32,000 nucleotides of DNA from Deltaproteobacteria bacterium (GCA_020351915.1 CP070673.1:4812889-4844888); one strand, 5' to 3'. Counted from the first letter of the stretch, positions 1,635 to 29,774 are shown. Notes: a model not told the origin generated them from the letters alone. Made by a program: numbers and translations.

Positions 1635-1659
1635 GTCCTTTTTCTCCTTTTCCAATTTT

Positions 1660-2133: not shown

Positions 2134-2151
2134 AACGACCTCCTTCAAGAC

Positions 2152-13205: not shown

Positions 13206-13331
13206 ATGGCCAAAAAGGAGGTCATGCTGAATCTAATGAAGCGGGGAGCGAATCCAAGGGAGATTTGGGAGGGGAATAACGAGTTTCTCCAGAAGAAGCT
13301 TGATCATTCAGTTTTATCAATGGATTATTGA
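13206..13331 (+). CDS. 41-aa ORF with a very strong Shine-Dalgarno, isolated in the AT-rich gap (small protein or N-terminal stump of a lost gene)
   Basis: AGGAGGAGG at 13191-13199, a 6-nt spacer, then an ATG. Product MAKKEVMLNLMKRGANPREIWEGNNEFLQKKLDHSVLSMDY. No homolog recognised and too short for the ORF track. Confidence 0.25.
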   Translation: MAKKEVMLNLMKRGANPREIWEGNNEFLQKKLDHSVLSMDY

Positions 13332-14104
13332 CTCTGCTCAGCAATCCTTATCAGAAGTTAATAATTGGTCTCTTGTATCAGTAGACGTGCAGCCGTTCAG
13401 CACCTGAAGGAATGTCTGACGTCTCCAAAAAAGGAGATTAAAACGATTAATACTTCTGATAGATACCTCTGAATATGTTTTGTGATACGCTATGATGAGG
13501 GTTATTCATGACTGCTTTAGTGCCTGCAATTAGTCGATGAGTCCACAGCCGATTCTTTGAAGTAGCTTGATATTTTACAGCCTAATGATTCAATAATATC
13601 AATCATTATGACTATCAAAAAGAGGCTAAGTTTTTGTTGACAATCTTGTTTTTCTTTTATATGAACAAGCTGCCTATCAAAATAATGACCGTTCGGTAGG
13701 TTTACCTCAATTTTATAAAGTTTCCTCTCACTTTCAAGCAATGATGTTTTTTTATAAACGGACGGACACAGGAGAAAGACAAGGATTTGAAAAAAGAGCA
13801 TTTGGCTGTGCTTGGTCTGGGCTTGTCCTTTTGCAATGCTTGGAGGAGAAGAGATGCTATGTGGTTTGATGTCCACACAGAAATGTGCTTTTTAGGACAA
13901 AGGAAAGATGAATAAGATTTACTTTGCCGAATGAAGGCTGCCAAAAACAAGAAGTGAGCAATCGAGGAGGTTGGATGAGCTGCCATTCGAATAAAGTCTT
14001 CGAGTGTGGAATGTCTTTCGGCCATCTATACTTGTGATGATGAATACTATTCATTACCAGGTCTCATAAAACGGTTTCATGCTATTTGATAGGAGGTGAG
14101 AATA

Positions 14105-15514
14105 ATGATCGGCATTATTTCATATGGTGCCTACGTTCCCCTTTGGAGACTGAGAAGAGAGGTTATATCCAGAGGAGGGCGAGGTGAGAAAAGCGTGGCA
14201 AGCTTTGATGAAGACAGTTTAACCATGGCGGTATCTGCGGTTAACAACTCTTTGGCAGGTATGGACAGGGAGTTGGTGGATGCCTTATTTTTCGCTTCAA
14301 CAACCTTTCCTTATAAAGAGAAACAGGGCTCAAGTATAGTTGCGGCGGCCACTGATCTCCGAAGAAATATATTAACTATTGACTCCGCCAATACGCTGAG
14401 AGGGGGCACAAGCTCGGTTAAGCTTGCTAAAGATATGGTGAGAGCTGGATCAGCGAGAAATATAGCTGTCGTGGCTTCCGATTGCCGATTAGGAGAGCCT
14501 GGGTCAGTTTTTGAACAGATCTGTGGCGATGGTGCTGGAGCTCTCGTAATTGGCGATACCGATGTTGCGGTTGAAATAGAGGGCACCTACTCGGTATACA
14601 ATGAGATGATTGATGTCTGGCGGGCAGACGACGACAAATTTGTCCGTGCCTGGGAAGATAGGTTTATTCAATCACAGGGATATATTAAGGGGATCCAAGG
14701 GGCGGTCACGGCTTTAATGAAGGATCACAGCATGGAACCCAGGGACTTTGCCAAGGCGGTTATCTATGCCCCAGACCAAAAAAGGGTTGCGGAGTTAGTT
14801 GCCAAACTTGGCTTTGATCCCGAAAAACAGTTGCAGGATCCTTTAATTTCGGCGATGGGGAATACAGGAACGGCCTACCCACTGATGCTTTTAATTGCAT
14901 CCCTTGAAGATGCCAAGCCTGGTGATAGAATTCTGTGGGCCAGTTATGGTGACGGCAGTGATGTCCTTATTCTCAAGGTCGCCGAAGCCATAGAGAATAT
15001 CAGAGACAGGAAGGGTATGAAAAAACTCCTGGCATCCAAAAAAGACCTAGGGGACTATACTGCATATCTGACAAGGAAAGGCTTGCTTAAGATGGATAGG
15101 GGACCAAAATACTCTCCTCAAGTTGTTTCCGCGACAGCATTATGGAGGGATTTGGATGAGGTTATTCGACTTTATGGGGTCAAGTGCAACTCATGTGGCA
15201 CTATTCAATACCCGCCCCAGAGAATATGTACCAAATGCCATGCCAGGGATCAATTCGAAAAGGTGAGGCTTTCTGACAAAAGAGCAAAGCTATTTACGTA
15301 TTCCCTCGATTTCGTATCCAATCCCCTAGAAGTACCGATGGTTGTGCCGGTTATTGATTTTGACGGAGGTGGCCGTTCAGCCGGCATTATTATGACTGAT
15401 CAGGACCCCAAGGAGCTACAGATCGGCATGCCGTTGGAGATGAGTTTCAGAAAGTTATTCAGTAATGACGGTATACATAATTACTTCTGGAAGTGCGCCC
15501 CCTTGAGGACTTAA
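14105..15514 (+). CDS. Fusion protein: HMG-CoA synthase-like (thiolase-fold) domain + C-terminal DUF35 zinc-ribbon/OB-fold domain, copy 1
   Basis: The track start at 14096 is GTG. The ATG at 14105 lies 8 nt after AGGAGG and matches the paralog N-terminus (MIGIISYGAYVPLWRL vs MVGITSYGAYIPFLRL). The HMGCS-like segment has ..DEDS(L/I)TMAV.., GDGAGAL and GNTG. The C-terminal part has CNSCGTIQYPPQRICTKC plus an OB-like tail ..IDFDGGGR...IGMPLEMSFRK. Confidence 0.85.
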   Translation: MIGIISYGAYVPLWRLRREVISRGGRGEKSVASFDEDSLTMAVSAVNNSLAGMDRELVDALFFASTTFPYKEKQGSSIVAAATDLRRNILTIDSANTLRGGTSSVKLAKDMVRAGSARNIAVVASDCRLGEPGSVFEQICGDGAGALVIGDTDVAVEIEGTYSVYNEMIDVWRADDDKFVRAWEDRFIQSQGYIKGIQGAVTALMKDHSMEPRDFAKAVIYAPDQKRVAELVAKLGFDPEKQLQDPLISAMGNTGTAYPLMLLIASLEDAKPGDRILWASYGDGSDVLILKVAEAIENIRDRKGMKKLLASKKDLGDYTAYLTRKGLLKMDRGPKYSPQVVSATALWRDLDEVIRLYGVKCNSCGTIQYPPQRICTKCHARDQFEKVRLSDKRAKLFTYSLDFVSNPLEVPMVVPVIDFDGGGRSAGIIMTDQDPKELQIGMPLEMSFRKLFSNDGIHNYFWKCAPLRT

Positions 15515-15535
15515 TAATCAAATTTAGGAGGGATT

Positions 15536-16717
15536 ATGGGTGGAATAAAGGATAAAATTGCGATCGTAGGCATGGGTTGCAGCAAGTTTGGAGAGCTTTG
15601 GGATAAAAGCCAGAATGATCTTATGATAGAGTCTTGCTATGAGGCATTGGATGATGCAGGGATTGATACAAAGGATATCCAGGCAGCCTGGTTGGCGACG
15701 GCCGAAAGCGGTCGAACGGGGATGAGACTTGCCCGGGCATTGAAGACCGATTACATCCCTGTGACCAGAGTTGAGAATCTCTGCGCCAGCGGAACCGATG
15801 CAATGCGCCAGGCCTGTTATGCAGTGGCGGCGGGGATATACGATATTGTCCTTGTCTGTGGATTCGAAAAGTTGAAGGATACGAAAGATCTCTTTGGAGG
15901 CAGCCTCGAGGGGCCTTGGAACACCAAGATTGATCCCAATTTGCCGCCGGCTACAGCATACGCTTTGGCAGCTAACCGGTATTTTCACCAGTACGGTTTA
16001 AGCCCTGAGGAGGGTAAGGAGATATTAGGCAAGATTGCCGTAAAGAATCATCGTAATGGGAGTCTGAATCCCAAGGCCCATTTCCAAAGGGAGATCACCC
16101 TGGAACAGGCCATAAAAGCCCCTATGATTGCCGCCCCGTTGGGGTTATATGATTGCTGTGCTGTGAGTGATGGATCAGCCGCGGCTGTGATTACTAGGGC
16201 TGAGCTAGCCAAAAAACTCAGGGATGACTATGTCCTGGTTAAGTCGGTTCAAGTGGTTACTGGTGCTTATGAAAGGCCATTACAAAACGATGCGGATTTT
16301 GTCCATTTTGAGGAAAATGTGGTCGCTGCTAACTTGGCTTATAAAGAAGCTGGAATCACTGATCCACGAAAGGAGATCGACTTGGCCATTGTTCATGACT
16401 GCTTTACAATCACTGAATTAATCATCTACGAAGACCTGGGGTTCAGCCCTCGCGGACAGGCCAAAGAGGATGTCAATGCAGGCACCTTCGAGTTGGGTGG
16501 AGGACTGCCGGTGAATACTGACGGAGGGTTGAAATGTTTCGGCCATCCTATTGGCGCAAGCGGTTTGAGAATGCTGTACGAGGCGTATAAGCAATTACAG
16601 GACAAAGCTGGTCCCCGTCAGGTGAAAAATGCCAACATAGCTTTGACGCACAACATAGCTGGGACTCCACGTGAATCATCTGTTTCTGGAATAACCATTT
16701 TAGGGCGTAGGAACTAG
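15536..16717 (+). CDS. SCP-x/archaeal-type thiolase (thiolase-like, non-FadA type), copy 1
   Basis: 393 aa. Motifs: VAIVGMGCSKFGE, nucleophile region VENLCASGTDA, IVHDCFTITE and NTDGGLKCFGHPIGASGLRM. RBS AGGAGG. Starts 21 nt after the upstream fusion gene. Confidence 0.9.
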   Translation: MGGIKDKIAIVGMGCSKFGELWDKSQNDLMIESCYEALDDAGIDTKDIQAAWLATAESGRTGMRLARALKTDYIPVTRVENLCASGTDAMRQACYAVAAGIYDIVLVCGFEKLKDTKDLFGGSLEGPWNTKIDPNLPPATAYALAANRYFHQYGLSPEEGKEILGKIAVKNHRNGSLNPKAHFQREITLEQAIKAPMIAAPLGLYDCCAVSDGSAAAVITRAELAKKLRDDYVLVKSVQVVTGAYERPLQNDADFVHFEENVVAANLAYKEAGITDPRKEIDLAIVHDCFTITELIIYEDLGFSPRGQAKEDVNAGTFELGGGLPVNTDGGLKCFGHPIGASGLRMLYEAYKQLQDKAGPRQVKNANIALTHNIAGTPRESSVSGITILGRRN

Positions 16718-16965
16718 GAAAAGTGACTTTAGACCTTAACCGCTCATCCAAATAAGTTTAGACCCACCAATTCGGTATTCTGATATGGAACATTTGCTTT
16801 GCAAATTCTGGCATTCGAGGTTTCTCCCGTAATCCTGCGGGATGATTGAAGTGAAGTAACTTGTTTGTCGAGGGATTTCCTTTTTTCACCCTCTCTTAAG
16901 CTCTTCTCTTTGAAGGGAGAGGGCCGAATAAAGGCATTAACTTGCTTTAGTTAAGGAGGCGTATA

Positions 16966-18963
16966 ATGAAAGAATTGAAACAAGTAACCGTTTTGGGTGC
17001 TGGTGCTATGGGAGGCGGATTGGCCTTATTATGCTCCGAGTCCGGGTTTGATGTAAAAGTGAGAGATATCGAAGAGGAGTATCTAGAGAAAGGACGTAAT
17101 ACCATTGAAAATCAATTAGATAGGAGAATAAAGAGGGGGAAGTTCACAGAGGAAGGCAAGAACAATGTGCTCGGCAGGATACAATTTACCACAGATTTAA
17201 AAGAGGCCGTAAAAGACGCGGACTATATCATAGAGGCCGTAACTGAAGAAATGGATATAAAGCAAAAATTATTTAAAGAGGTTCACCAATATGCACCCAA
17301 GCATGCCATCTTTGGCTCCAATACCTCCTCCTTTGTAATTAGTGAAATCGCTGCGGCTATTCCTGAGCCAGAGAGAGTCATAGGTATTCATTTCTTCAAC
17401 CCTCCGAGCGCCATGAAACTCTTAGAAATCATTTATGGAGAGAAGACCAGTGAGGAAACGATCAAGGTGACAGATGAGTTTGCGAAGTTATTAGGCAGAG
17501 AAGTCATCTATTGTTTAAAGGATAGCCCAGGTTTTGTAACCACTCGCCTCATTACCATAATGATTAGTGAGTCTGGATGGGCAGTGGACTTGGACGGCGC
17601 GAATATACCTGAGGTGGATGCAGCCTTGAAATACAGGCTGGGACTTCCCATGGGCATGTTTGAGTTCAGTGACGTTCTAGGTGGAGGAGGTGGTGTTGCG
17701 TTACAGCATAAAGTGACACGCTATCTGAGCAGCAAGTTAGGGGAGACTTACAGAAATGCACCTATCATGGAAAAGAAGTATGAGTCAGGTGAATGGGGCG
17801 TGACCAGCGGGAAGGGATTTTATGATTGGTCAGAAGGCAAGAAAAACGAGATCCCCTTCAAATTAGCGAGCAATTTTGATCCCATCAGGATCTTGGCCCC
17901 CTTGGCTAACGAGGCTGTTAAGCTCGTCGAAAATGGGATAATGACAAAGGAGGATCTAGACAAGGCTTTGATACTTGGCCTTGGCTTTCCAAGGGGCCTT
18001 CTTAGAATGGCCGACAGCATCGGCCTGGATAAGATAGTCACAAAGGTTAATGAACTGTTTGATACCCACAAGGAGGAAAGGTATAGATGCTCTCCCATGT
18101 TGGCTAGCCTTGTTAAAAAAGGAAACCTGGGAAGAAAAACAGGCGACGGCATTTATTCATATGGGCCAGGAGAATATGAGTTTATTACCTTGGATTTCGA
18201 TAAGAAAAAAGGGATCGCTAAGCTAACCATCAACCGGCCCCTCCGGGCAAACGCCCTCAATGTTGACTGTTTTTCAGAGATAAATAAGGCATTAGATGCC
18301 TTTGAAGCGAGCGATGAAGTCAAGTGTTTAGTTATTACAGGAGCGGGAAGAGTTTTTTGTGCGGGGGCTGACATCTCCATGTTTGGTGCAAGGGATGTGA
18401 CGGAGTTGCTGAATATGAGTACCCCGGTTCAGGAATTGCTAACAAGACTTGAGACCCTGAACAAACCTGTAATCGCCGCAATAAACGGGGCTTGCCTGGG
18501 AGGCGGTCTGGAGCTGGCAATCGCATGTGATTTGAGGATCGCCAAAGAAGGCGCGATCTTGGGCTTTCCTGAGGCGAATCTTGGGATTTTCCCTGGGGCG
18601 GGTGGCACGCAGCGTGTTACCAGATTAATTGGACTAGCCCGGGCCAAGGAGCTTGTCCTAATGGCCCAAAACATAACAGCTCAGAAGGCCCTAGATTGGG
18701 GATTGGTGAACGCGGTCGCCGAGCCGGATAAGTTTGAATCTACGGTTGAGGAGATGGCTCAAACGCTGGCAGATAAGGCCAGCTTGGCCCAAGGTATAGC
18801 CAAACGAGTGATGTATTATGGAGCTCAAGCAGACCAAAGAACGGCCCTTTTTCTGGAGGGTTTTAGCTCTCCTCCGGCAATTCTGTCTGATGATGCCAGC
18901 GAAGGCATTACAGCGTTTATGTACAGGCGCAAACCCAACTTTGGAGCAAAGAATGAGAAGTGA
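16966..18963 (+). CDS. Bifunctional 3-hydroxyacyl-CoA dehydrogenase (N-terminal) / enoyl-CoA hydratase (C-terminal) fusion
   Basis: 665 aa. The N-terminal Rossmann motif is VTVLGAGAMGGGLA, followed by GSNTSS and HFFNPPSAMKLLEI (HACD signatures). The C-terminal crotonase fold has ITGAGRVFCAGADI, GGGLELAIACDLRIA and PEANLGIFPGAGGTQR (both hydratase Glu positions present). TAAGGAGG RBS. Confidence 0.9.
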   Translation: MKELKQVTVLGAGAMGGGLALLCSESGFDVKVRDIEEEYLEKGRNTIENQLDRRIKRGKFTEEGKNNVLGRIQFTTDLKEAVKDADYIIEAVTEEMDIKQKLFKEVHQYAPKHAIFGSNTSSFVISEIAAAIPEPERVIGIHFFNPPSAMKLLEIIYGEKTSEETIKVTDEFAKLLGREVIYCLKDSPGFVTTRLITIMISESGWAVDLDGANIPEVDAALKYRLGLPMGMFEFSDVLGGGGGVALQHKVTRYLSSKLGETYRNAPIMEKKYESGEWGVTSGKGFYDWSEGKKNEIPFKLASNFDPIRILAPLANEAVKLVENGIMTKEDLDKALILGLGFPRGLLRMADSIGLDKIVTKVNELFDTHKEERYRCSPMLASLVKKGNLGRKTGDGIYSYGPGEYEFITLDFDKKKGIAKLTINRPLRANALNVDCFSEINKALDAFEASDEVKCLVITGAGRVFCAGADISMFGARDVTELLNMSTPVQELLTRLETLNKPVIAAINGACLGGGLELAIACDLRIAKEGAILGFPEANLGIFPGAGGTQRVTRLIGLARAKELVLMAQNITAQKALDWGLVNAVAEPDKFESTVEEMAQTLADKASLAQGIAKRVMYYGAQADQRTALFLEGFSSPPAILSDDASEGITAFMYRRKPNFGAKNEK

Positions 18964-19032
18964 GATGGGATAGTCCAATTAGATTAAGAAAAGAGGAAAG
19001 ATTCGAGGGTATGAAGGAACAAGGAGAAAACA

Positions 19033-20430
19033 ATGGTTGGTATTACGTCATATGGTGCTTATATACCCTTCTTGAGGCTGGACAAAGCTGCCCTTCGAGC
19101 TAAAGGAGAAAAGGCTGTAGCTAATTTTGACGAGGACAGCATAACCATGGCGGTAGCTGCGGGTGTCGACTGTGTAGAGGGTTTTGACAGCACTGGTATA
19201 AACGGGCTCTTTTTGGCTACGACGACATCGCCTTATAAGGAGAAGCAGGCTGCTGCGACAGTTGCCCTGGCCATGGATTTGCCCAGTGAGATTCGGACTG
19301 CTGATTTTGGTGGCTCTTTGAGGGCGGGAACAGCGGCTTTGGGGTCGGCGATAGATGGTATTCAAAGCGGTTCTATGAAAAGCGTGATGGTCATTGCATC
19401 AGATTGCCGGATGGGTTCTCCTAAAAGCCAGTATGAACAGTTGGTTGGGGATGGAGCTGCCGCGTTACTATTGGGAGATAGCGGTGTCATTGCTAGTGTG
19501 GAGGGCAGTTATTCTATCTCGAATGAAATATTGGACGTATGGAGAAAGGATGGGGATCCTTTTATTAAGTGGTGGGAAGACCGTTTTATTCTGAGCCAAG
19601 GGTATCAGGAGGTCGTACAGAGGTGTGTTTCAGGTTTGATGCAGAAATATGGGGTAACTGCCAAGGACTTTACAAAGGTTATCTTATATGCACCAAACCC
19701 GAGGGTTCCTGTCGGTTTGGCAAAGAGGTTGGGTTTTGATATTGAGAACCAGGTTCAGGATCCGTTGCTTATGATGGTAGGCAACACAGGGGCTGCCTCT
19801 GTTATGATGATGCTGGTGTCAGCCCTAGAAGAAGCCAAGGTGGGAGATAGGTTTTTGGTAATCAGTTATGGTGATGGCTGTGACAGTTATATTTTTCGGG
19901 CTACGGAGAAGATCAAGGACCTTAAAGAGAGGCGTGGGGTTAAGGGCCATATAACATCCAAACAGGTGCTATCAAGCTATGAGAAATATGATATGTTGCG
20001 TCATCTTACTCCAGTTGAGGGCAATCCGATGGTACAGCACATGTTAGCCTCGGCCGTAGCCATATGGAGGGAACGGAAAAAGAACATTGCCTTTTATGGT
20101 AAAAAGTGCAAGCAGTGTGGGACGCCACAGTATCCGCCTCAGCGGATATGCACCGTGTGTCAGAGCAAGGATGAGATGGAAGATTATCGATTTTCCGACA
20201 AAAAGGGTAAGGTTTTCACATACACCTGGACGGCTGCTGCCCCTGTGGGGGATCCGCCACTGGTTTATGCTATTGTGGATTTTGAAGGAGGAGGAAGGAT
20301 TTTCACCGAGATGACTGACAGGGATCTTTCCAAGCTTGAAGTAGGTATGCCGGTAGAGATGACATTCAGGAAGATGCAGATACCGGGGGCTTTCCACGAC
20401 TACTTTTGGAAATGTAGGCCGTTGAGATAG
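19033..20430 (+). CDS. Fusion protein: HMG-CoA synthase-like domain + C-terminal DUF35 zinc-ribbon/OB-fold domain, copy 2
   Basis: 465 aa, colinear with 14105-15514 over the full length. Shared strings include SYGAY(V/I)P, FDEDS(L/I)TMAV, PYKEKQ, ASDCR(L/M)G, GDGA, WEDRFI(Q/L)SQGY, GNTG and SYGDG. The zinc ribbon is CKQCGTPQYPPQRICTVC and the tail is VGMPVEMTFRK..YFWKC(A/R)PLR. Confidence 0.85.
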   Translation: MVGITSYGAYIPFLRLDKAALRAKGEKAVANFDEDSITMAVAAGVDCVEGFDSTGINGLFLATTTSPYKEKQAAATVALAMDLPSEIRTADFGGSLRAGTAALGSAIDGIQSGSMKSVMVIASDCRMGSPKSQYEQLVGDGAAALLLGDSGVIASVEGSYSISNEILDVWRKDGDPFIKWWEDRFILSQGYQEVVQRCVSGLMQKYGVTAKDFTKVILYAPNPRVPVGLAKRLGFDIENQVQDPLLMMVGNTGAASVMMMLVSALEEAKVGDRFLVISYGDGCDSYIFRATEKIKDLKERRGVKGHITSKQVLSSYEKYDMLRHLTPVEGNPMVQHMLASAVAIWRERKKNIAFYGKKCKQCGTPQYPPQRICTVCQSKDEMEDYRFSDKKGKVFTYTWTAAAPVGDPPLVYAIVDFEGGGRIFTEMTDRDLSKLEVGMPVEMTFRKMQIPGAFHDYFWKCRPLR

Positions 20431-20442
20431 AGAGGGGATCAA

Positions 20443-21630
20443 ATGGAGAGCATTGAGGACAAGGTTGCTATCGTTGGTATGGGTTGTACCAAATTCGGGG
20501 AGCTATGGGACAAGAGTGGTGATGATTTGCTGATCGATGCAACTTATGAAGCCCTTGAGGATGCCGGGATTGGACCCGAGGATGTTCAGGCGGCATGGTT
20601 TGGGACGGCTTGGTCCGGTCTCACTGCTTTAAACGTGAGTGTTCCTCTGAAGACACAATACATTCCGGTGACCAGGGTGGAAAATATATGTGCTACCGCA
20701 ACTGAGGCTTTGCGAGCGGCCATTTATGCCATAGCAGCCGGGGCGTGTGACGTGGCTCTGGCCGTTGGTATGGAAAAGCTGAAGGATACCTTCGGCGTTG
20801 TGGGCCCACAGGGGTCAGATATTGGCATTTCCTCAATGGGAACTTCGGGCATAGAAAGGATTCACATTCCGACCGTTTATTACTCGATGCTTGCGGTGAG
20901 GTATTTTCATCGCTATGGAATGAGTGTGGAAAAAGGTAAGGAGCTTATTGCTCGAATCCCCGTGAAGAGTCACCATAATGCCTCGATGAATCCGAAGGCT
21001 CATTTTCGGAATGAAATAACGATGGATCAGGTCCTCAAGGCTCCGATCATTGCGTATCCATTGGGATTACTTGATTGCTGTGGGTATAGTGATGGGGCAG
21101 CAGCGGCCGTAGTGACGAGGGCGGACATGGCAAAGAGTTTTCGAGATGACCCTATCTCTATCAAGGCCTTATCCGTGAACGTGGGGGCTCGTCAGGGTTT
21201 CCTGCAGCAGGATTACGACTATACCCATGTGGAGGCAAATCGTCGTGCCGCCCAAGCCGCCTATAAAGAGGCAGGGATAAGCAATCCTCTTAAGGAACTG
21301 TCTATGGCCGAGGTTCATGATTGTTTTTCGATTCATGAGTTGGTCATCTATGAGGATCTTCAATTTTGCCCTCCTGGCGGAGCCAAAGAATATATCGAGG
21401 GCGGTGTCTTTGAACTGGATGGAGAGCTGCCGGTCAATACTGATGGTGGCCTAAAGTGTTTTGGCCACCCGTTTGGGGCCAGCGGTTTGAGGATGATCTA
21501 TGAAGCGTATTTGCAGTTGCAAGGGAAGGCCGGTCCTCGTCAGGTGAAGGATCCCCAGCTTGCATTATGTCATAATCTTGGAGGTGGCCCGGGCCAGGGC
21601 ATTGGCAGTGTAGTTATCTTTGGAAATTGA
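20443..21630 (+). CDS. SCP-x/archaeal-type thiolase, copy 2
   Basis: 395 aa, colinear with 15536-16717. Motifs: VAIVGMGCTKFGE, VENICATATEA, EVHDCFSIHE and NTDGGLKCFGHPFGASGLRM. Starts 12 nt after the upstream fusion gene. Confidence 0.9.
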   Translation: MESIEDKVAIVGMGCTKFGELWDKSGDDLLIDATYEALEDAGIGPEDVQAAWFGTAWSGLTALNVSVPLKTQYIPVTRVENICATATEALRAAIYAIAAGACDVALAVGMEKLKDTFGVVGPQGSDIGISSMGTSGIERIHIPTVYYSMLAVRYFHRYGMSVEKGKELIARIPVKSHHNASMNPKAHFRNEITMDQVLKAPIIAYPLGLLDCCGYSDGAAAAVVTRADMAKSFRDDPISIKALSVNVGARQGFLQQDYDYTHVEANRRAAQAAYKEAGISNPLKELSMAEVHDCFSIHELVIYEDLQFCPPGGAKEYIEGGVFELDGELPVNTDGGLKCFGHPFGASGLRMIYEAYLQLQGKAGPRQVKDPQLALCHNLGGGPGQGIGSVVIFGN

Positions 21631-22452: not shown

Positions 22453-23739
22453 TTATTTGATCGCCTTCAATCCTGAAGGGAGCTGAATCTTCGCTTCGGC
22501 TATCGACTCAGGATAGATAACGACCATTTGGCCATCCTTAGTCCACTGAATCACGCATGCCATAGCCGCCTCTTTGGGATCGAAACCATAAGGAACCTGA
22601 TGCCCCTCATCAAACCTGATCCTTCCCATAACGCCCATTCGATCGGTCTTTTCAACCTCGGCTACAATTGCATCAGGGTCAAGGCTGCCCGCCCGTTCGA
22701 TCGCCTCAGCAAGAACATAGACAGCCTCATAGGAAGGTGCTGGCCCATGACCGACTGGCCCAGGTGGATACTCCCCCCATCTCTTCACAAAGGCATCATA
22801 AAAGGCTATGGATTTGGGCATCTTCTTCGCCCCCGTCCCACTTCCTACTTCCAAAGCCATATCAATGCAACCAGCGATCTTTCCGTCATAGTGCTTCCAG
22901 GCCCCACGATAAGCGAATTGTGTTGACTGGCCGGTCATGAGTGCTGGGATTTTCATTGATATCCACAGCTTGGTCAGGATGCTGGCCTCGGCCATACTAA
23001 AAAAGGTCAAGAGCACCTGAGCCCTCTCGGCCTTCGCCTTCATCAGTCCGGTTGAGAAATCGGTACTGCCCGAAGGATAAATATCTTGACCTAAAACGGC
23101 CCAACCGTTTTTATCAAACCATCCGGCCATCATTTCAGCGCTTTTCCTCGCGAACATTACATCTTGAACATACAAATACACCCTATTAAAACCGAACTCC
23201 TTATTTATCTCAGCCATCAGACCGGATAAATACATCCCGGCATACCTGGAGGTAAGGCACAGTCTGAAGATGTATTTGTACTTCTCAGGATTTTCTCTTA
23301 TCCGCGCCTCAGACGCTGGGCTCATGGCGATACTACCCAACATGGGAACCTTGTGCTTTGCTATAATATCCATACTGGCAAGAAGGACCTCTGAGCGGAA
23401 TGGCCCGACCACTATAGCGTGGACCTTCTTCTCCAGTATGGTCTTTTCCAATGCCAAAAGACCCTCAGTTACCGGGACCCCCGGCTCTGCGCCCCGGGTG
23501 TCAGCAGTTACGATTTTAAAAGGTCTTCTGGTTGATCCGACCTTAACCCCTCCTTTGGCGTTAATCTCGTCGACAGCCAGCTGCACTGCCTTATAGCTGA
23601 GGTCGCCTGCAAAGAATTTTAAAGAGGTAACTACGCCCAGCACTATAGGCTCAGCTGCCCGGCCAACACCTCCAGTTAAGTTAATAGAAAAGCACATGAC
23701 GGCAAAAAACACAATGAGTACCTGAAGGATTCTTTTCAT
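22453..23739 (-). CDS. Periplasmic/extracytoplasmic substrate-binding protein of a Liv-type (branched-chain amino acid / aromatic acid) ABC transporter
   Basis: The N-terminal signal peptide is MKRILQVLIVFFAVMCFSINLTGGVGRA/AEP. The type-I periplasmic binding fold pattern is IVLGVV...AVQLAVDEINAKGGV. The ATG at 23739 lies 8 nt after GGAGG and is preferred over the track start at 23754. Confidence 0.85.
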   Translation of the reverse strand: MKRILQVLIVFFAVMCFSINLTGGVGRAAEPIVLGVVTSLKFFAGDLSYKAVQLAVDEINAKGGVKVGSTRRPFKIVTADTRGAEPGVPVTEGLLALEKTILEKKVHAIVVGPFRSEVLLASMDIIAKHKVPMLGSIAMSPASEARIRENPEKYKYIFRLCLTSRYAGMYLSGLMAEINKEFGFNRVYLYVQDVMFARKSAEMMAGWFDKNGWAVLGQDIYPSGSTDFSTGLMKAKAERAQVLLTFFSMAEASILTKLWISMKIPALMTGQSTQFAYRGAWKHYDGKIAGCIDMALEVGSGTGAKKMPKSIAFYDAFVKRWGEYPPGPVGHGPAPSYEAVYVLAEAIERAGSLDPDAIVAEVEKTDRMGVMGRIRFDEGHQVPYGFDPKEAAMACVIQWTKDGQMVVIYPESIAEAKIQLPSGLKAIK

Positions 23740-24739: not shown

Positions 24740-25618
24740 TTGGGTTCAATGCTTATTGGAAATTTAATATACGGATTACTCAATAGTGCTATCCTGGCGT
24801 TTATGGCCCTTGGTTTTAGCCTGACCTTTGGTATAAGTGGGGTAGCTAATTTTGCCCATGGGGCCCTATATGTCTTTGTCGGGTATGCGACGTTGGTTCT
24901 CTATGAGCAGTTGAGTTTTCCATATATTTTGTCTGTTGTGGTATCTACCCTTTTTGCGGGCCTTTTTGGTGGGCTCATGTATCGGTTTATTGTCCTGCGC
25001 GTACGTGGCCAGATTACTTCTGAGGTGATAGCTACATTTGGGGTGGGGCTGGTAATACTGGAATTAGTGCATTATTCTACTGGTGGTTATGCGTATAATC
25101 TGCCGGTTCTTGTTGACCGTAGTTTCGAGGTTGCGGGTGTATATATAGATGGGCAGCGGCTAATTATTTTAGCGGTCTGTGCAATACTCATCTTCTCTCT
25201 CTGGCTTTTCACCAATTATACCCGAATTGGCCGTGCCTTCAGGGGGATAGCACAGGATGAACGTACAGCTCTCTCCTTAGGCATAAATTCAGACTGGATG
25301 GCCACTTTGAGCATTTCCTTCGGTGCAATGCTGGCTGGCCTGGCCGCAATATGTATCTTTCCCTTAGGGTCTCTAGCTATTGGTGAGGGCTACAATGTCT
25401 TGCTGATGGCATTGGCCGTCAGTATTATAGGTGGTCTTGGTAGGACAGGGGGAGTAGTTCTTGCCAGTCTTTTTATTGGCTTTTCTGAGCAGTTCACAAA
25501 TTTCTATATAGGCCCAAACTTGAAAATGGTGGTCGGTCTTGCTGCTATGTGCTTAGTACTGGCTATCAAGCCCTCCGGTCTCCTTGGACAGCAGAAGGAA
25601 CTGGAAGAGAGGATTTAA
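24740..25618 (+). CDS. ABC transporter permease, LivH-like
   Basis: 292 aa, multi-pass hydrophobic. It has the N-terminal ..LLNSAILAFMALGFSLTFGISGVANFAHGAL.. signature of the LivH family. The start is uncertain (TTG 24740 per the track, or in-frame ATG 24749) and the RBS is weak. Confidence 0.85.
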   Translation: MGSMLIGNLIYGLLNSAILAFMALGFSLTFGISGVANFAHGALYVFVGYATLVLYEQLSFPYILSVVVSTLFAGLFGGLMYRFIVLRVRGQITSEVIATFGVGLVILELVHYSTGGYAYNLPVLVDRSFEVAGVYIDGQRLIILAVCAILIFSLWLFTNYTRIGRAFRGIAQDERTALSLGINSDWMATLSISFGAMLAGLAAICIFPLGSLAIGEGYNVLLMALAVSIIGGLGRTGGVVLASLFIGFSEQFTNFYIGPNLKMVVGLAAMCLVLAIKPSGLLGQQKELEERI

Positions 25619-26616
25619 TGGGGCAGCGAAAAGAGCGGTTAGATCGAGGCATCAAGGCGAGATCAGACGACATATATGCCCTATGCTCTTGGGGGGAAAT
25701 GGTTTATCTAGCTGGGCCGAGATTATTTCTTATTTTGGCTTTTGCATTTCTGCCACTTCTCTTGAACTATTACTGGCAAAAGGTGTTTTTATCTGCGGGT
25801 GTCTTTGCCATGTTGGCCATCAGCTGGGATATGTTAGAGCAAAGTGGGATGGTATCTCTTGGGCAAGCTTTCTTTTTTGGGGTAGGTGCTTATTTCGCCG
25901 GTATCATGAATCATTCGTGGGGCTGGCCTGTGTATGTCACCATCCCTATGGCGACTGTTTGTGGGGCCCTCTTCTGTACCATTTCCCTCTTACCAGTTTT
26001 AAGATTACGCGGAATATATTTTGCCATGGTGACTTTGATACTACCCATCATGCTGGGTAGGATAATTGAAGCTACAAAGATCTTTGGGGGTACAGTGGGG
26101 CTCAGCGGACTGGACCCACTTCCATCAAGATGGGTAGAACTATACCTTGTTCTGGCCGCCCTTGTGGCCGCCTTCTTTGGCTCTAGACGGCTAATGGATT
26201 CAGATTTTGGTTTAGCTCTCAAGGGTATGAAAGATAATGATCGATCCATTATGAGCGCTGGTATTAACATTTACTGGCTTAAGGCACAGATCCTATTTGT
26301 CTCTAGTGGCCTGGGAGCGTTTGTCGGCGCTTATATGACCCACGTGTACATGTTTGTTGGCATGCCTGCCTTCGCCTTGGACTATTCTATACTTCCTATT
26401 GCGGCCGCTGTCGTGGGTGGGGTGGGAACACTCACTGGTCCGATGTTAGGGGCCTTCATTCTGGTACCCCTGTCAGAGATCTTACGCGGTATTGGCGGCT
26501 TTCGCATGGCATTGTACGGATTTTTTCTAGTGTTTTTTATCGTGGGATTACCTGAAGGCATTTTTCACTATATCCAGAGGAAATATCATCAGTTCGAACG
26601 ATGGGTTGAGGTGTAG
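25618..26616 (+). CDS. ABC transporter permease, LivM-like
   Basis: The track ORF starts at 25549, inside the upstream gene. The in-frame ATG at 25618 overlaps the LivH-like stop (TAATG) and follows GGAAGAGAGGA. The product is hydrophobic with ..GQAFFFGVGAY.. and ..GGTVGL.., typical of LivM. Confidence 0.85.
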   Translation: MGQRKERLDRGIKARSDDIYALCSWGEMVYLAGPRLFLILAFAFLPLLLNYYWQKVFLSAGVFAMLAISWDMLEQSGMVSLGQAFFFGVGAYFAGIMNHSWGWPVYVTIPMATVCGALFCTISLLPVLRLRGIYFAMVTLILPIMLGRIIEATKIFGGTVGLSGLDPLPSRWVELYLVLAALVAAFFGSRRLMDSDFGLALKGMKDNDRSIMSAGINIYWLKAQILFVSSGLGAFVGAYMTHVYMFVGMPAFALDYSILPIAAAVVGGVGTLTGPMLGAFILVPLSEILRGIGGFRMALYGFFLVFFIVGLPEGIFHYIQRKYHQFERWVEV

Positions 26617-26618
26617 AG

Positions 26619-27374
26619 ATGAGCTCTTCTTCTTTGTTGCAAGTTTCCGAGCTCTCGAAGCATTTCGGTGGCGTCCAGGCTTTATTTGCTCTCAGTTTCG
26701 ATCTAAATGAAGGAGAACTATTGGGTATTATTGGGCCTAATGGATCGGGAAAGACAACAACTGTTAACCTTATTACCGGCTTCGTAAAACCAAATTCGGG
26801 CAGGGTCCTCTATCGTGGCAAGGATATCACTGGGTGGGCTCCATATAAAATAGCTCGTCTGGGTATAGCGAGGACTTTTCAAATGGTCAAGCCCTTCTAT
26901 CGTCTTCCGGCTTTCAAGAATTTGATCATTCATCTGTATTCGCCCCGGGTCAAACGGCTTGCCGGTGGGAAATATGGTGACCGGGAGGCGGTGGCCTTGG
27001 ATCTCTTGGAAGAGGTAGGCTTTGAAAGGGATGCTTTTGTGGCATACAAGGCTGCCGGGGTCCTTCCCCAGGGCTACCTCAAGAAATTGGAGTTGGCCAA
27101 AGCGATTGCCTTGGAACCAGATCTTCTAATCCTGGATGAGCTTTTCTCTGGCTTGAGTCTGGCTGAAGTAAGTAGCATAGTACCAATTGTCGAGAAATTG
27201 AAGGTGGGGGGAAAGCCGATCATCATGATTGAACATCGGCTGAGAGAACTCTTTAGGATCGCTGATCGAGTGATTGTCCTCAATTATGGGCGGAAGATAG
27301 CCGAAGGAGCTCCATATGAGATTATAGAGAAGGAGGAGGTCAAGCAGGCTTATTTAGGGAGTGAGGTAGATTAG
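26619..27374 (+). CDS. ABC transporter ATP-binding protein, LivG-like
   Basis: Walker A GPNGSGKTT, Q-loop ARTFQ, Walker B LLILDE and H-loop IEHR. The signature region reads LPQGYLKKLELAKA rather than the LSYGQQRRLEIA type. Confidence 0.9.
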   Translation: MSSSSLLQVSELSKHFGGVQALFALSFDLNEGELLGIIGPNGSGKTTTVNLITGFVKPNSGRVLYRGKDITGWAPYKIARLGIARTFQMVKPFYRLPAFKNLIIHLYSPRVKRLAGGKYGDREAVALDLLEEVGFERDAFVAYKAAGVLPQGYLKKLELAKAIALEPDLLILDELFSGLSLAEVSSIVPIVEKLKVGGKPIIMIEHRLRELFRIADRVIVLNYGRKIAEGAPYEIIEKEEVKQAYLGSEVD

Positions 27375-27375
27375 A

Positions 27376-28122
27376 GTGTTGGAAGTGAGGAATTTAATGG
27401 TCTTCTTTGAAAATGCCTTGGCCTTGAATGACTTTTCCATAGTAGTTCGTCAAGGTGAGATTGTAGGGGTTATTGGCTCCAACAGTGCAGGCAAAACCAC
27501 CTTAATGAATACGATCTCAGGCCTCATAATCGATATGAAGCTAAAAGAGAAGCGGAGGGGCGGTGAACGGATAACCATATATGGAGAGATAATCTTCCAA
27601 GGTGAAAATATTATGGATATGGAGCCATACAACAGGGTGAAAAAGGGTATTGTCCTTAGCCGAGAAAGGCATCCGGTATTCCCGGAAACCGATGTGATGG
27701 GAAATTTAAAGATAGCCGCTCACCTGAGAAAAAAGTCAGAAGCTAAGGAAATGTACGAATATGTTTTCAATCTTTTTCCTATTCTTGCTCCCTTGAAGAG
27801 GCGCAAGGCAGGGTTTCTGAGCGGGGGTGAGCAGCAGATGCTATCCATTGGTATGGCCTTGATTGCAAGGCCTACACTTCTTTTGCTCGACGAACCTCTT
27901 CTTGGTCTCAGTCCACATGTGCAGTCTGTCCTCGTTGACGCCATTGAAAATCTAAAGAGTTCCCTGGGTATCACTATTCTGATAACTGAACAATTCGCAC
28001 GGCCTATATTGCCTATGATAAGTAGTGGATGTATCATCGAAAATGGGATGCTCGCCCTGACCGGTACAGGAGCCGAGCTAATGGATAATCCAGATGTTAA
28101 GGCAGCATACTTCGGGGTCTGA
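27376..28122 (+). CDS. ABC transporter ATP-binding protein, LivF-like
   Basis: GTG start. Walker A GSNSAGKTT, signature LSGGEQQMLSIGMAL and Walker B LLLLDEP. About 14 extra residues (..IDMKLKEKRRGGERITIYGE..) follow the P-loop helix relative to E. coli LivF as I recall it. Confidence 0.9.
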   Translation: MLEVRNLMVFFENALALNDFSIVVRQGEIVGVIGSNSAGKTTLMNTISGLIIDMKLKEKRRGGERITIYGEIIFQGENIMDMEPYNRVKKGIVLSRERHPVFPETDVMGNLKIAAHLRKKSEAKEMYEYVFNLFPILAPLKRRKAGFLSGGEQQMLSIGMALIARPTLLLLDEPLLGLSPHVQSVLVDAIENLKSSLGITILITEQFARPILPMISSGCIIENGMLALTGTGAELMDNPDVKAAYFGV

Positions 28123-28127
28123 CTCCT

Positions 28128-29774
28128 ATGAACCAGGGCCAGACAAGGAACATATATCCAACCTTCGAGGAGGTGGTCAAGAAACGTGGGAGGCACACGG
28201 CTGTGGTCTTTCTCGGTACAAGATACTCTTATCAGAGGTTGAAAGACTTATCCGAAACATTTGCGAGTGCCTTGTTACACCTAGGAGTCAAACAAGGGGA
28301 TAAGGTCATCCTTTATGTCCCTAACAGTATTCAGTGGGTGATTGTCTGGCTGGGCATTCAGAGAATCGGTGGGGTGTGCGTGCCTATAACACCCATATAT
28401 ACACCTTACGATATCGAATATATCGCCAATGATAGCGGTGCAGTAGCTATTGTTTGTGCTGATATCAATTTTGGATACGTGACAAGGGTCTTGCCCAAAA
28501 CCAATATCAAGCTGGTGGTGATTTCCAGGATGGCCGATCTTCTGCCCTGGTGGAAAAGGCTATTTGGATTCCTCTTTGATAGAACACCAAAAGGTAGAAT
28601 AGGTCTTGTCGAAAACACGTACTTACTCAGAAAACTGCTGTCTAAATACCACGGCCAGACGGACCAGTTGCCTGAGGTTGAACAAGCCGCGGAAGACTTA
28701 GTAGAGATAATGTATACTGGTGGTACCACCATGAGACCCAAAGGGGTTCCCGTTACCTCTAATAGCTTTCTACAATCTTGTCATATATCAGTCGGAGGAT
28801 TTGCAGCCCTCATCCCGCCCGAGACAAATATCATTGCAAGCAATGCGCCCCTTTTTCATATTTTAGGGCAAACTGCTGGCATGAGCACAATTATAGTTGG
28901 GGGAGGAACTTTGCTTATCTACCCTCGGGTGAACCTGGACGCCTTTTTGGAGGCTATCCAGCGATTCAGGGTAAAGACAATGCTCGGCGTTCCCTTGCTT
29001 TACCGGATGATACTGGAACATAGCCGTCTCGATCAATACGACCTGAGCTCTGTTGAGATCTGGTTTGCTGGGGGGGACGTTCTTCCTGTCGAGGTTGGGA
29101 ACCGGTGGCGTGATAAATTCGGTAAGTTTATATGTCAGGCATACGGGACAACAGAGACCTGCGGTGGCATATCCATGTGCCCGCTAGATAAAGATAGCCC
29201 GCCAAAAAGTGCAGGTAGACTTTATCCTGGTGTAAAAATCCAAATCGTTGACCCCGCCACTCTGAAACCTGTAAAACCCGGAGAGCCAGGGGAATTACTT
29301 GTTACTCTAGATTCAATGGTTCGCAGTTACTGGAACAACCCAGAGGAGACTAAAAAGTCCTTTGTAAAGCTGGACGGCGTTGTATGGTATCGCACTTCTG
29401 ACATTATGTCTATGGATGAAGAGGGGAACCTCTACTTTTTGGACCGAACCGTAGATACCATAAAACATAAAGGCTACCGCGTGTCGTCCTCTGAGATAGA
29501 ATCGCTGTTAAAAGAGCACCCGGCAATCATGGATTCCTGTGTGGTAGGGGTACCAGATTCAAGGGTAGGGGAAAGGATTAAGGCCTTTGTGGTTCTCAAG
29601 GAAGATATCAAAGGTATTACCGGCTACGACCTTATTAGATGGTGTAGAGAAAGACTCCCTTCGTATAAGGTTCCTCAATACATAGAGTTCAGGGATATGC
29701 TTCCTAAATCCAAGGTAGGTAAACTGTTAAGAAGAGAGATGAGGAGCGAGGAGATGCGAAGACAGGAAAAATAA
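28128..29774 (+). CDS. AMP-forming acyl-CoA ligase, FadD-like (medium/long-chain or arylalkanoate type)
   Basis: 548 aa. Motifs: YTGGTTMRPKGV (A3), QAYGTTETCG (A5), WYRTSDIMSMDEEGNLYFLDRTVDTIKHKGYRVSSSEIE (A7/A8) and PKSKVGKLLRRE (A10 Lys). Confidence 0.9.
   Translation: MNQGQTRNIYPTFEEVVKKRGRHTAVVFLGTRYSYQRLKDLSETFASALLHLGVKQGDKVILYVPNSIQWVIVWLGIQRIGGVCVPITPIYTPYDIEYIANDSGAVAIVCADINFGYVTRVLPKTNIKLVVISRMADLLPWWKRLFGFLFDRTPKGRIGLVENTYLLRKLLSKYHGQTDQLPEVEQAAEDLVEIMYTGGTTMRPKGVPVTSNSFLQSCHISVGGFAALIPPETNIIASNAPLFHILGQTAGMSTIIVGGGTLLIYPRVNLDAFLEAIQRFRVKTMLGVPLLYRMILEHSRLDQYDLSSVEIWFAGGDVLPVEVGNRWRDKFGKFICQAYGTTETCGGISMCPLDKDSPPKSAGRLYPGVKIQIVDPATLKPVKPGEPGELLVTLDSMVRSYWNNPEETKKSFVKLDGVVWYRTSDIMSMDEEGNLYFLDRTVDTIKHKGYRVSSSEIESLLKEHPAIMDSCVVGVPDSRVGERIKAFVVLKEDIKGITGYDLIRWCRERLPSYKVPQYIEFRDMLPKSKVGKLLRREMRSEEMRRQEK

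Follow-up and report, generated by a model that had tools for sequence, protein, structure and literature searches.

Gene arrangement and domain architecture

The locus consists of two gene pairs that flank a single fused gene, together with genes for an ABC transporter and a CoA ligase. Positions are those of the window, the whole 32,000-nucleotide stretch of DNA that was analysed.

14105..15514, + strand: HD1, a pseudo-HMG-CoA synthase (HMGS; residues 1 to ~330), a linker and a DUF35 zinc ribbon/OB fold (residues ~354–467); 469 residues from ATG
15536..16717, + strand: T1, SCP-x/archaeal-type thiolase, partner of HD1; 393 residues; NF004810, 548 bits against a cut-off of 403
16966..18963, + strand: HE, fusion of 3-hydroxyacyl-CoA dehydrogenase (HACD, N-terminal) and enoyl-CoA hydratase (ECH, C-terminal); 665 residues; Pfam 3HCDH_N, 3HCDH and ECH_1
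19033..20430, + strand: HD2, a second pseudo-HMGS::DUF35 fusion, of a different subfamily from HD1; 465 residues
20443..21630, + strand: T2, SCP-x/archaeal-type thiolase, partner of HD2; 395 residues; NF004810, 538 bits
22453..23754, − strand: Liv-type periplasmic binding protein (PBP) of the operon's ABC transporter; 54–57% identical to its counterpart encoded after HE in the orthologous operons
24740..28122, + strand: genes for two permeases and two ATPases of this ABC transporter
28128..29774, + strand: AMP-forming acyl-CoA ligase, the last gene of the conserved operon; 60–63% identity to the ligases of loci L085 and L093

A sequence-only reading of this DNA had described two HMGS-like::DUF35 fusions, each closely followed by a thiolase, on either side of a dehydrogenase/hydratase fusion. 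The open reading frames match this description, with spacings of 21 nt (HD1–T1) and 12 nt (HD2–T2), and the start of HD1 is preceded by GGAGG 9 nt upstream of the ATG. The C-terminal ~115 residues of both fused proteins match zf-ChsH2 (PF12172) and OB_ChsH2_C (PF01796) above the Pfam gathering cut-off, and carry the motifs C-x2-C-G-T-x-QYPPQRIC-T-x-C and GMP(L/V)EM(S/T)FRK noted in that reading. The N-terminal ~300 residues have KAS-III-type thiolase-fold matches in Pfam. Over residues 1–330 the NCBIfam model for archaeal HMG-CoA synthase (PRK04262) scores 225 and 220 bits, narrowly missing its cut-off of 244, and a second NCBIfam HMGS model reaches 173 bits against 353. The two fused proteins are 46% identical and the two thiolases 59%, close to the earlier estimate by eye of roughly half.

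Within HE, the domains span residues 6–186 (3HCDH_N), 308–399 (3HCDH) and 413–660 (ECH_1), which is the inverse of the order in FadB/FadJ. The best models for its HACD domain are of the 3-hydroxybutyryl-CoA dehydrogenase type. Saci_1109 of Sulfolobus acidocaldarius shows the same inverted order and is partnered by an archaeal-type ketothiolase, Saci_1114; DUF35 genes are common neighbours of archaeal ketothiolase genes. Unlike the window, however, the Sulfolobus acidocaldarius set is archaeal, has a free-standing DUF35 and lacks an HMGS-like subunit. The domain architecture and gene arrangement of the window are far above chance.

Active-site residues

Three of the four residues of the HMGS catalytic tetrad are replaced in HD1 (E82 by T66, C114 by L98, H238 by Y221), and only N270 is retained, as N253. 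The corresponding positions in HD2 are T64, L96, Y219 and N251; E-C-H-N reads T-L-Y-N in both copies. Across 75 family members the cysteine position is occupied by Leu (68), Thr (5) or Ile (2) and never by Cys, and no other invariant cysteine was seen in the HMGS-like domain of these relatives. By contrast, the thiolases retain their catalytic residues. T1 has Cys83 (codon 15782–15784), H287-D-C-F290 and G336-H-P338, and T2 has Cys83 (codon 20689–20691), HDCF and GHP. Among the 75 partner thiolases, Cys83, H287, D288, F290 and GHP are present in every one and C289 in 74. Judged from these residues, the HMGS-like domains of HD1 and HD2 are predicted to be catalytically dead, while T1 and T2 keep their active-site motifs. 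The thiolase nucleophile region is as intact as first described, but the loss of the HMGS catalytic residues had been overlooked, and the HMGS-like domain does not qualify as a third catalytic component.

Other features of the fused protein are also well conserved. The four zinc-ligand cysteines (C361, C364, C375 and C378 in HD1; C359, C362, C373 and C376 in HD2) are kept in all 75 relatives. T66 is found in 74 of the 75, and it and the other HD1 pocket substitutions L98, D126 and R128 are almost invariant. This near-invariance could indicate a retained ligand-binding or other function instead of a purely structural role.

Structural relatives

The best PDB matches are three chains of the archaeal thiolase/HMGS/DUF35 complex 6ESQ (HMGS, E = 2.6e-34; DUF35, E = 8.3e-16; thiolase, E = 4.7e-59), with 6esq_I and 6esq_E aligning to separate halves of the fused protein. 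All three parts are homologous, as had been suggested, and the thiolase motifs and the zinc ribbon plus OB fold of DUF35 are shared. A Foldseek search with an AF2 model of HD1, which is of moderate quality (pLDDT 71.8, linker and several loops poorly predicted), returned the HMGS of 6ET9/6ESQ at the top and PhlA and MucA next.

This homology, the near miss of PRK04262 (225 bits against 244) and the name 'hydroxymethylglutaryl-CoA synthase' given to the fused protein of relatives by JGI and NCBI could all be taken to mean that each pair is a working thiolase/HMG-CoA synthase channelling complex in the style of the archaeal mevalonate pathway, as many database annotations imply. This is hardly credible, however, given Leu, Thr and Tyr in place of the catalytic Cys, Glu and His in both copies and a catalytic cysteine in 0 of 75 relatives. 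Replacement of the whole E-C-H-N tetrad in an archaeal HMGS abolishes HMG-CoA formation, and a bacterial complex with a fused subunit, that of Pseudomonas fluorescens, does not form HMG-CoA either (PMC12960953). The window further differs from 6ESQ in that its DUF35 is fused instead of free, and its host is bacterial with a catabolic context, whereas the archaeal complex serves mevalonate synthesis.

PhlACB and MucABC (PDB 5M3K, 9VBO) are likewise tripartite with an inactive, tetrad-less HMGS-like subunit, and in a phmmer alignment an arginine of PhlA is aligned to R128 of HD1. In addition, PDB 6OK1, in which DUF35 scaffolds Ltp2, is among the matches for both the fused protein and the thiolase. 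The pairs might on this basis be CoA-independent Friedel–Crafts C-acyltransferases (PhlACB/MucABC) or retro-aldolases (Ltp2/ChsH2, Sal/Shy). Ltp2-type aldolases are not known to have the thiolase nucleophile, which T1 and T2 retain. PhlC and MucB have lost HDxF (PMC12960953), and their complexes, which transfer acetyl groups to phenols, have DUF35 as a separate protein and lie in secondary-metabolite clusters, whereas HDCF is kept in both window thiolases and a look through the window turned up neither PKS/NRPS genes nor a gene cluster for steroid degradation. Scores for PhlC (101–115 bits), MucB (83) and Ltp2 (116) are far below the 204 bits of the archaeal ACAT (6esq_A), and this reading is very unlikely.

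Benzoylsuccinyl-CoA thiolase, BbsAB (PDB 7PXP), resembles the pairs in combining an SCP-x-type thiolase bearing HDxF with a DUF35 zinc-finger subunit, in an obligate complex of anaerobic aromatic catabolism. However, it lacks an HMGS-like domain, and the window proteins score far short of what the NCBIfam models for BbsA (27.8 and 22.7 bits, cut-off 250) and BbsB (172 and 181 bits, cut-off 750) require.

Distribution of the module

The pair occurs at 547 loci in species-representative genomes. A thiolase gene follows within 300 nt in 79 of 84 cases, directly after the fused gene (median spacing, 22 nt), and four of the five unpaired fused genes lie at contig ends. The fused gene and its thiolase are an obligate, very common and widespread bacterial module. 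Thiolases beside HD1 orthologues are 75–78% identical to T1 and 59–62% to T2, and those beside HD2 orthologues are 70–79% identical to T2 and 57–58% to T1. The distance matrices of fused genes and thiolases are correlated (r = 0.71), a value reached by none of 999 Mantel permutations. Pair 1 and pair 2 fall in different clades, so the duplication is old, as had been proposed.

The commonest metabolic neighbours of the pair are acyl-CoA dehydrogenase and ECH/HACD genes, and in many Dehalococcoidia the pair sits among ribosomal-protein genes. HD1 orthologues occur in operons of the order regulator, pair, HACD::ECH, ABC transporter and CoA ligase. The full layout, with the PBP gene directly after HACD::ECH, recurs at four loci (L085, L092, L093, L098); the PBP gene of the window is inverted relative to these operons. 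HD2 orthologues instead adjoin genes for 3-oxoacid CoA-transferase A and B (above NCBIfam cut-offs) and acetophenone-carboxylase-like (Apc-like) ketone carboxylase genes.

Genomic context and substrate

Neighbouring genes in the window agree with the degradative island that had been suspected. One has 2-naphthoyl-CoA reductase (NCR) as its best match (486 bits against 343 for FadH), and others resemble the alpha subunit of 4-hydroxybenzoyl-CoA reductase (522 bits) and Fdc1/UbiD decarboxylases. At L088/L089 the pair again lies with an OYE reductase, a CoA ligase and an Hcr-like FAD/Fer2/MoCo trio, and at L004 UbiD and an Hcr-like set lie upstream of the pair. Feruloyl-CoA synthetase and 4-coumarate ligases are among the best stand-alone PDB matches of LIG2. 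A gene for an acyl-CoA dehydrogenase was seen neither in the window nor in the four operons with the conserved layout.

These neighbours, the ligase matches, the ketone carboxylase genes beside HD2 orthologues and the ability of BbsAB, a DUF35-associated SCP-x thiolase, to handle aryl ketones all favor the proposal that one or both of the pairs are thiolases dedicated to bulky 3-oxoacyl-CoA substrates, aryl or alicyclic. Hydroxycinnamate β-oxidation, for example, could yield (4-hydroxy)benzoylacetyl-CoA and then 4-hydroxybenzoyl-CoA for the neighboring Hcr-like reductase, and an acid that is already unsaturated would fit the missing acyl-CoA dehydrogenase. This sharpens the sequence-only reading and is a sub-case of the thiolase function preferred below, not an exclusive rival to it. 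However, the evidence for it is all contextual, and the specificity first put forward has no direct support. The sole assayed member of the fused type cleaves acetoacetyl-CoA (PMC12960953), the BbsA and BbsB scores are low, the PBP has only weak matches, to Leu/Ile/Val-binding proteins, pair 2 relatives adjoin 3-oxoacid CoA-transferases, and the ribosomal-protein setting in Dehalococcoidia argues for a general role. A dedicated bulky substrate is possible but rather unlikely.

Alternatively, the pairs may condense, in reverse β-oxidation or in acetoacetyl-CoA, PHB or fatty-acid synthesis. Thiolases are reversible, archaeal ketothiolase/DUF35 pairs have been proposed to be synthetic, as a fatty-acid synthase (preprint 10.1101/2024.07.05.601840), and the Dehalococcoidia copies lie in housekeeping gene clusters. 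This seems improbable for an operon with an uptake transporter, a CoA ligase and an HACD whose best models are catabolic-type enzymes, and the Pseudomonas fluorescens complex gave no acetyl-CoA condensation in vitro (PMC12960953).

Proposed function

We consider it probable that the locus encodes two heteromeric β-ketothiolases, each with a non-catalytic scaffold subunit, in a β-oxidative operon within an anaerobic aromatic-acid island. Each adjacent gene pair would form one heteromeric 3-oxoacyl-CoA thiolase. T1 and T2 would perform the chemistry, with Cys83 forming the acyl-enzyme and HDCF and GHP supplying acid/base residues. HD1 and HD2, their HMGS Glu, Cys and His gone, would be the non-catalytic subunits. 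By analogy with the free DUF35 of the archaeal complex, the zinc ribbon/OB fold may clamp the HMGS-like domain to the thiolase, and the HD partner probably stabilizes the thiolase and forms part of a shared CoA-binding chamber. The obligate pairing of the two genes and their co-inheritance lend such an assembly indirect support.

The context suggests a catabolic direction, in which an acid would be taken up through the adjacent ABC transporter, converted to its CoA ester by the adjacent CoA ligase, and then hydrated, oxidized and thiolysed by HE and the pairs. Since the window showed no acyl-CoA dehydrogenase gene, an enoyl- or 3-hydroxyacyl-CoA is the probable entry form of the substrate. Two old subfamilies appear to have been joined in one operon. 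Pair 1 would be its native thiolase. The lineage of pair 2 otherwise accompanies ketone carboxylases and 3-oxoacid CoA-transferases, and the most likely substrate of this pair is a 3-oxoacyl-CoA, short or aryl, of the kind of acetoacetyl- or benzoylacetyl-CoA.

Comparison with the Pseudomonas fluorescens complex

The sequence-only reading had taken the arrangement to be uncharacterized. However, the module is very common, and the fused HMGS-DUF35 and ACAT pair of Pseudomonas fluorescens has been purified and assayed (PMC12960953, Nat Commun 2026). Because a member was described in 2026, the window module is not new in kind. PfACAT/HMGS-DUF35 cleaves acetoacetyl-CoA and forms neither HMG-CoA nor acetoacetyl-CoA, and the H294Y change in the HDxF motif of its thiolase abolishes cleavage (PMC12960953). 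As in the window, an HMGS-like::DUF35 fusion that has lost the HMGS tetrad is paired with an ACAT-type thiolase that keeps the Cys, HDxF and GHx, and a PKS/NRPS context is absent. Assignment to the same family rests on the published description and on fused homologues from Azoarcus (Proteobacteria) and Rhodococcus (Actinobacteria), which are 30–33% identical to HD1. What sets the window apart is that it has two pairs, each of another subfamily, and that these lie in a β-oxidation/transport operon.

PfACAT/HMGS-DUF35 was presented as a representative of about 1,000 bacterial loci and termed an evolutionary intermediate without a pathway (PMC12960953). In contrast to this view, the operon conservation described above points to an established role in catabolism.

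Gene arrangement and domains

The module consists of five open reading frames (ORFs):

14105-15514, + strand: HD1, fused HMGS-like::DUF35 protein, with GGAGG 9 nt 5' of the ATG at 14105
15536-16717, + strand: T1, thiolase (NF004810, 548 bits against a cut-off of 403)
16966-18963, + strand: HE, HACD::ECH fusion with the domain order 3HCDH_N, 3HCDH, ECH_1
19033-20430, + strand: HD2, fused HMGS-like::DUF35 protein
20443-21630, + strand: T2, thiolase (NF004810, 538 bits against a cut-off of 403)

Each fused gene is closely followed by its thiolase, with a spacing of 21 nt for HD1/T1 and 12 nt for HD2/T2. The final ~115 residues of HD1 and HD2 match the Pfam models zf-ChsH2 and OB_ChsH2_C (the old DUF35) above the gathering cut-off, and the first ~300 residues give KAS-III-type thiolase-fold matches. 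The NCBIfam model PRK04262 (archaeal HMG-CoA synthase) spans residues 1-330 of both proteins, at 225 bits for HD1 and 220 for HD2 (cut-off 244). Pairwise identity is 46% between HD1 and HD2 and 59% between T1 and T2. This arrangement is real and was correctly described in the sequence-only reading: ORFs, Pfam and NCBIfam place all five genes where it had put them, with the domains it had called.

The HMGS-like site of the fused subunit

The closest solved relatives found by sequence search are three chains of the thiolase/HMGS/DUF35 complex of Methanothermococcus thermolithotrophicus. The HMGS part matches 6esq_I (E 2.6e-34), the DUF35 part 6esq_E (E 8.3e-16) and the thiolase 6esq_A (E 4.7e-59). 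PhlA, PhlB and PhlC rank next, followed by MucA, MucB, BbsB and Ltp2. Foldseek returned the same ranking for HD1 (6ET9/6ESQ HMGS, then PhlA, then MucA) with an AF2 model of moderate quality (pLDDT 71.8), which served for fold assignment alone and not for pocket analysis.

The tetrad Glu82-Cys114-His238-Asn270 of 6esq_I aligns with T66-L98-Y221-N253 in HD1 and T64-L96-Y219-N251 in HD2. When 24 sequences are aligned, T66, L98 and N253 never vary, and Y221 is conserved in 90% or more of them. Among 75 family members the position of the HMGS nucleophile holds leucine in 68, threonine in five, isoleucine in two and cysteine in none, and no other invariant cysteine occurs in the HMGS-like domain in either set; the four zinc-ribbon cysteines are kept in all 75. 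Judged by these residues, the HMGS-like domain of HD1 and HD2 is a pseudo-enzyme predicted to be unable to form an acyl-enzyme, because the tetrad is lost, cysteine never stands at the nucleophile position and no other invariant cysteine is present. An active HMGS complex is excluded because this nucleophile is missing. The HMGS-like and DUF35 domains had both been recognized in the sequence-only reading, which overlooked the loss of the tetrad (T-L-Y-N in both copies).

Pairing with a thiolase and proposed mechanism

Searches with HD1 gave more than 3,000 matches; full-length fused proteins of 464-474 aa, 53-93% identical, make up almost all of the best 120. Searches with HD2 gave 7,431 matches with E <= 1e-50 out of 8,000 candidates scored. 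Relatives are encoded at 547 loci in species-representative genomes, and the best 80 of these belong mainly to Dehalococcoidia, Desulfobacterales, Syntrophales and strain N47. In the same best 80 loci, an SCP-x thiolase lies within 300 nt after 79 of 84 fused genes (median gap 22 nt), and four of the five unpaired genes are at contig ends. Tandem pairs are frequent (L021, L040, L052, L054, L064, L066 and L068). The distance matrices of the fused proteins and thiolases correlate at r = 0.71, a value reached by none of 999 Mantel permutations. The fused gene and its thiolase are thus obligately adjacent and inherited together.

T1 and T2 retain the nucleophile Cys83, the HDCF loop of SCP-2 thiolases and GHP, all of which are kept in 74-75 of 75 partner thiolases. 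By these residues, both look catalytically competent. The retained HDCF speaks against a Phl/Muc-type acyltransferase, and the retained cysteine against an Ltp2-type aldolase. Membership of BbsAB was also considered and rejected, as the proteins do not reach the NCBIfam models. Operons with the pair also encode uptake, CoA activation, hydration and dehydrogenation. Biosynthesis is a possible direction but fits poorly with the surrounding transporter and ligase genes.

By homology to 6ESQ, PhlACB, MucABC and the Pseudomonas fluorescens complex, each fused protein would form a heteromer with its thiolase. The DUF35 module would clamp two thiolase-fold dimers together, while the pseudo-HMGS domain would steady the thiolase and complete an interfacial CoA chamber. 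The 3-oxoacyl-CoA produced by HE would then undergo thiolysis by T1 and T2, with pair 1 (HD1 and T1) probably taking the operon-specific intermediate.

Two subfamilies and operon history

HD1 and HD2 fall in different clades, and each is closer to orthologues elsewhere than to its paralogue in the window. HD1 orthologues are 60-69% identical; the thiolases next to them share 75-78% identity with T1 and 59-62% with T2. The HD1-type operon, with the order IclR–HD–T–HACD::ECH–PBP–two permeases–two ATPases–AMP ligase (PBP, Liv-type periplasmic binding protein), recurs in L085, L092 and L093. Variants carry an acyl-CoA dehydrogenase or Amidohydro_2 gene (L090, L094), or place the pair amid an OYE reductase, a CoA ligase and an Hcr-like FAD/Fer2/MoCo trio (L088/L089).

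HD2 orthologues are 62-74% identical; the thiolases beside them share 70-79% identity with T2 and 57-58% with T1. Genes for 3-oxoacid CoA-transferase come after the HD2-type pair in L095 and L096; in L095 both subunits score above the NCBIfam cut-offs, and acetophenone-carboxylase-like subunits come next. In L097 a carboxyltransferase gene is followed by CoA-transferase A/B, which lead directly into the pair. A conserved 454-aa protein and a ~90-aa gene lie directly 5' of the pair at L095 5067-6738 and L096 6441-8115, on two unrelated metagenome contigs; the 454-aa protein has no Pfam or NCBIfam match.

From this comparison, the window is therefore an HD1-type operon into which an additional HD2-type pair has been inserted, downstream of HE, and whose PBP gene is inverted. 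HE itself is only ~30% identical to its counterparts in L085, L092 and L093, and 76% identical to that of L098, which has the same layout with a sigma-54 activator upstream. These identities mark HE as a non-orthologous replacement, from a different lineage that shares the domain order. The genes flanking HE are 54-78% identical to those of orthologous operons, and the HE slot is unchanged. The history of the operon is mosaic.

Two short relics lie just 5' of the permease gene, and one of them forms an inverted repeat with the present PBP gene:

24499-24585, + strand: thiolase 3' end (last 29 residues), 45% identical to T1
24638-24700, + strand: PBP residues 405-425, 57% identical
22479-22543 / 24637-24701: 65-nt inverted repeat between the inverted PBP gene and the PBP relic

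Together these look like traces of operon rearrangement. Against solved structures, the PBP gives only weak matches to Leu/Ile/Val-binding proteins.

Upstream gap and other features

The divergent operons are separated by an AT-rich (~39% GC) gap of 1.3 kb (12765-14104) with no regulator gene. Upstream of orthologous operons there is an IclR or sigma-54 activator gene. No trace of an IclR remnant was detected upstream of HD1 by tblastn, although orthologous operons carry the IclR gene there. The sigma-54 promoter scan gave 17 matches in the window against 16.6 expected, with none in the gap, and the sigma-70 promoter/terminator scan gave background levels only. The sole ORF of the gap, read by eye, has 42 codons and a strong RBS (~13206-13334). 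Further downstream, Rfam detects group II intron D1-D4 (RF02005; 102.9 bits, E 2.8e-28) at 30477-30715 (+). The match lacks an obvious reverse-transcriptase ORF and is followed by a molybdopterin-oxidoreductase ORF that runs from ~30865 off the right end of the window.

Substrate and aromatic context

The divergent side of the window contains the following genes:

1-3036, - strand: second Mo-hydroxylase (FAD/Fer2/MoCo) set, large subunit truncated by the left end of the window
4240-6513, - strand: Mo enzyme large subunit, best match 4-hydroxybenzoyl-CoA reductase alpha (522 bits)
7419-8849, - strand: UbiD enzyme of Fdc1/HudA type
8873-10534, - strand: CoA ligase
10845-12764, - strand: OYE/FAD protein, best match 2-naphthoyl-CoA reductase (6QKG; 486 bits vs 343 for FadH)

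The stretch looks like an anaerobic aryl-CoA island. On the strength of gene context, a hydroxycinnamate-type route would employ every component, running from ligase through HE and thiolase to 4-hydroxybenzoyl-CoA and the Hcr-like reductase. Neither the window nor the operons of L085, L092, L093 and L098 showed an acyl-CoA dehydrogenase gene, which suggests that the acid enters the cell as an enoate or 3-hydroxy acid. Pair 2 (HD2 and T2) belongs to a lineage associated with 3-oxoacid CoA-transferases, which suggests a short or aryl 3-oxoacyl-CoA as its substrate, of either the acetoacetyl or the benzoylacetyl type.

The commonest metabolic neighbours of the pair are genes for acyl-CoA dehydrogenase, ECH/HACD, SDR and methylmalonyl-CoA mutase. 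In about 12-15 Dehalococcoidia loci the pair lies between the genes for ribosomal proteins L1 and L10, and an aryl-only role is disfavoured because of this position. The set there consists of a second thiolase and a free DUF35, then the fused gene and its thiolase. It directly follows the L1 gene at L015 5993-11008 and precedes the L10 gene at L010 8761-13677; the extra thiolase is ~31% identical to T1. Related loci have EF-Tu and NusG genes nearby, a striking housekeeping location.

Relation to described systems and significance

A survey of co-localised HMGS, ACAT and DUF35 genes mined 1,030 bacterial loci, 1,001 of them without secondary-metabolism context (Nat Commun 2026, PMC12960953). 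The fused P. fluorescens complex makes neither HMG-CoA nor acetoacetyl-CoA from acetyl-CoA; it cleaves acetoacetyl-CoA, an activity nearly lost in the HDxF-motif mutant H294Y (PMC12960953). The pairs in the window are members of this kind, with a local variation in having two subfamilies arranged around HE. The sequence-only reading did not recognise a characterised enzyme system here and named the existence of one as a refutation; for the kind that refutation largely applies, since the P. fluorescens pair has been assayed, but it does not extend to a physiological substrate. Fused homologues in Azoarcus KH32C and Rhodococcus DK17 (30-33% identical, 99% query coverage) likewise lack the nucleophile cysteine of HMGS and adjoin an 'acetyl-CoA acetyltransferase' in β-oxidation-type surroundings; the P. 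fluorescens protein is like them by description. The thn operon for naphthalene degradation in N47 has plain thiolases (ThnJ, ThnV) with no HMGS-like partner listed, and no link to the module emerged; the N47 homologue (L043) is on a separate short contig. Two papers on benzene degradation do not mention the module.

The fused complex has been viewed as an orphan 'evolutionary intermediate' (PMC12960953). The conserved operons (regulator–pair–HACD::ECH–transporter–ligase, and pair–CoA-transferase–ketone carboxylase) point instead to an established catabolic thiolase in β-oxidative and ketone-derived pathways of anaerobes. A more speculative reading, which we consider rather unlikely as a whole, makes pseudo-HMGS::DUF35 an obligatory CoA-docking or specificity subunit and no evolutionary leftover, because the remodelled pocket is near-invariant (T66, L98, D126, R128), gene pairing is strict and the subfamilies have distinct operon contexts. 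The HD1 type would go with imported enoyl or hydroxy acids, by aryl-CoA reductase and Hcr-like enzymes, and the HD2 type with ketone carboxylase and 3-oxoacid CoA-transferase. The system would serve anaerobic Desulfobacterota and Dehalococcoidia as their main β-ketothiolase, perhaps with aryl-ketone thiolysis included, and in that case thousands of such proteins may carry a wrong HMG-CoA synthase label.

Relatives are often publicly named 'hydroxymethylglutaryl-CoA synthase', though their residues predict that they cannot make HMG-CoA, and this mislabelling can lead to a mevalonate pathway being wrongly called in MAGs of Dehalococcoidia and Desulfobacterota. The value of the finding lies in this mislabelling, in the operon evidence for a catabolic role and in the question of what a conserved dead pocket does. 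With the two subfamilies naturally side by side, the window offers a place to probe the contribution of the dead HMGS subunit.
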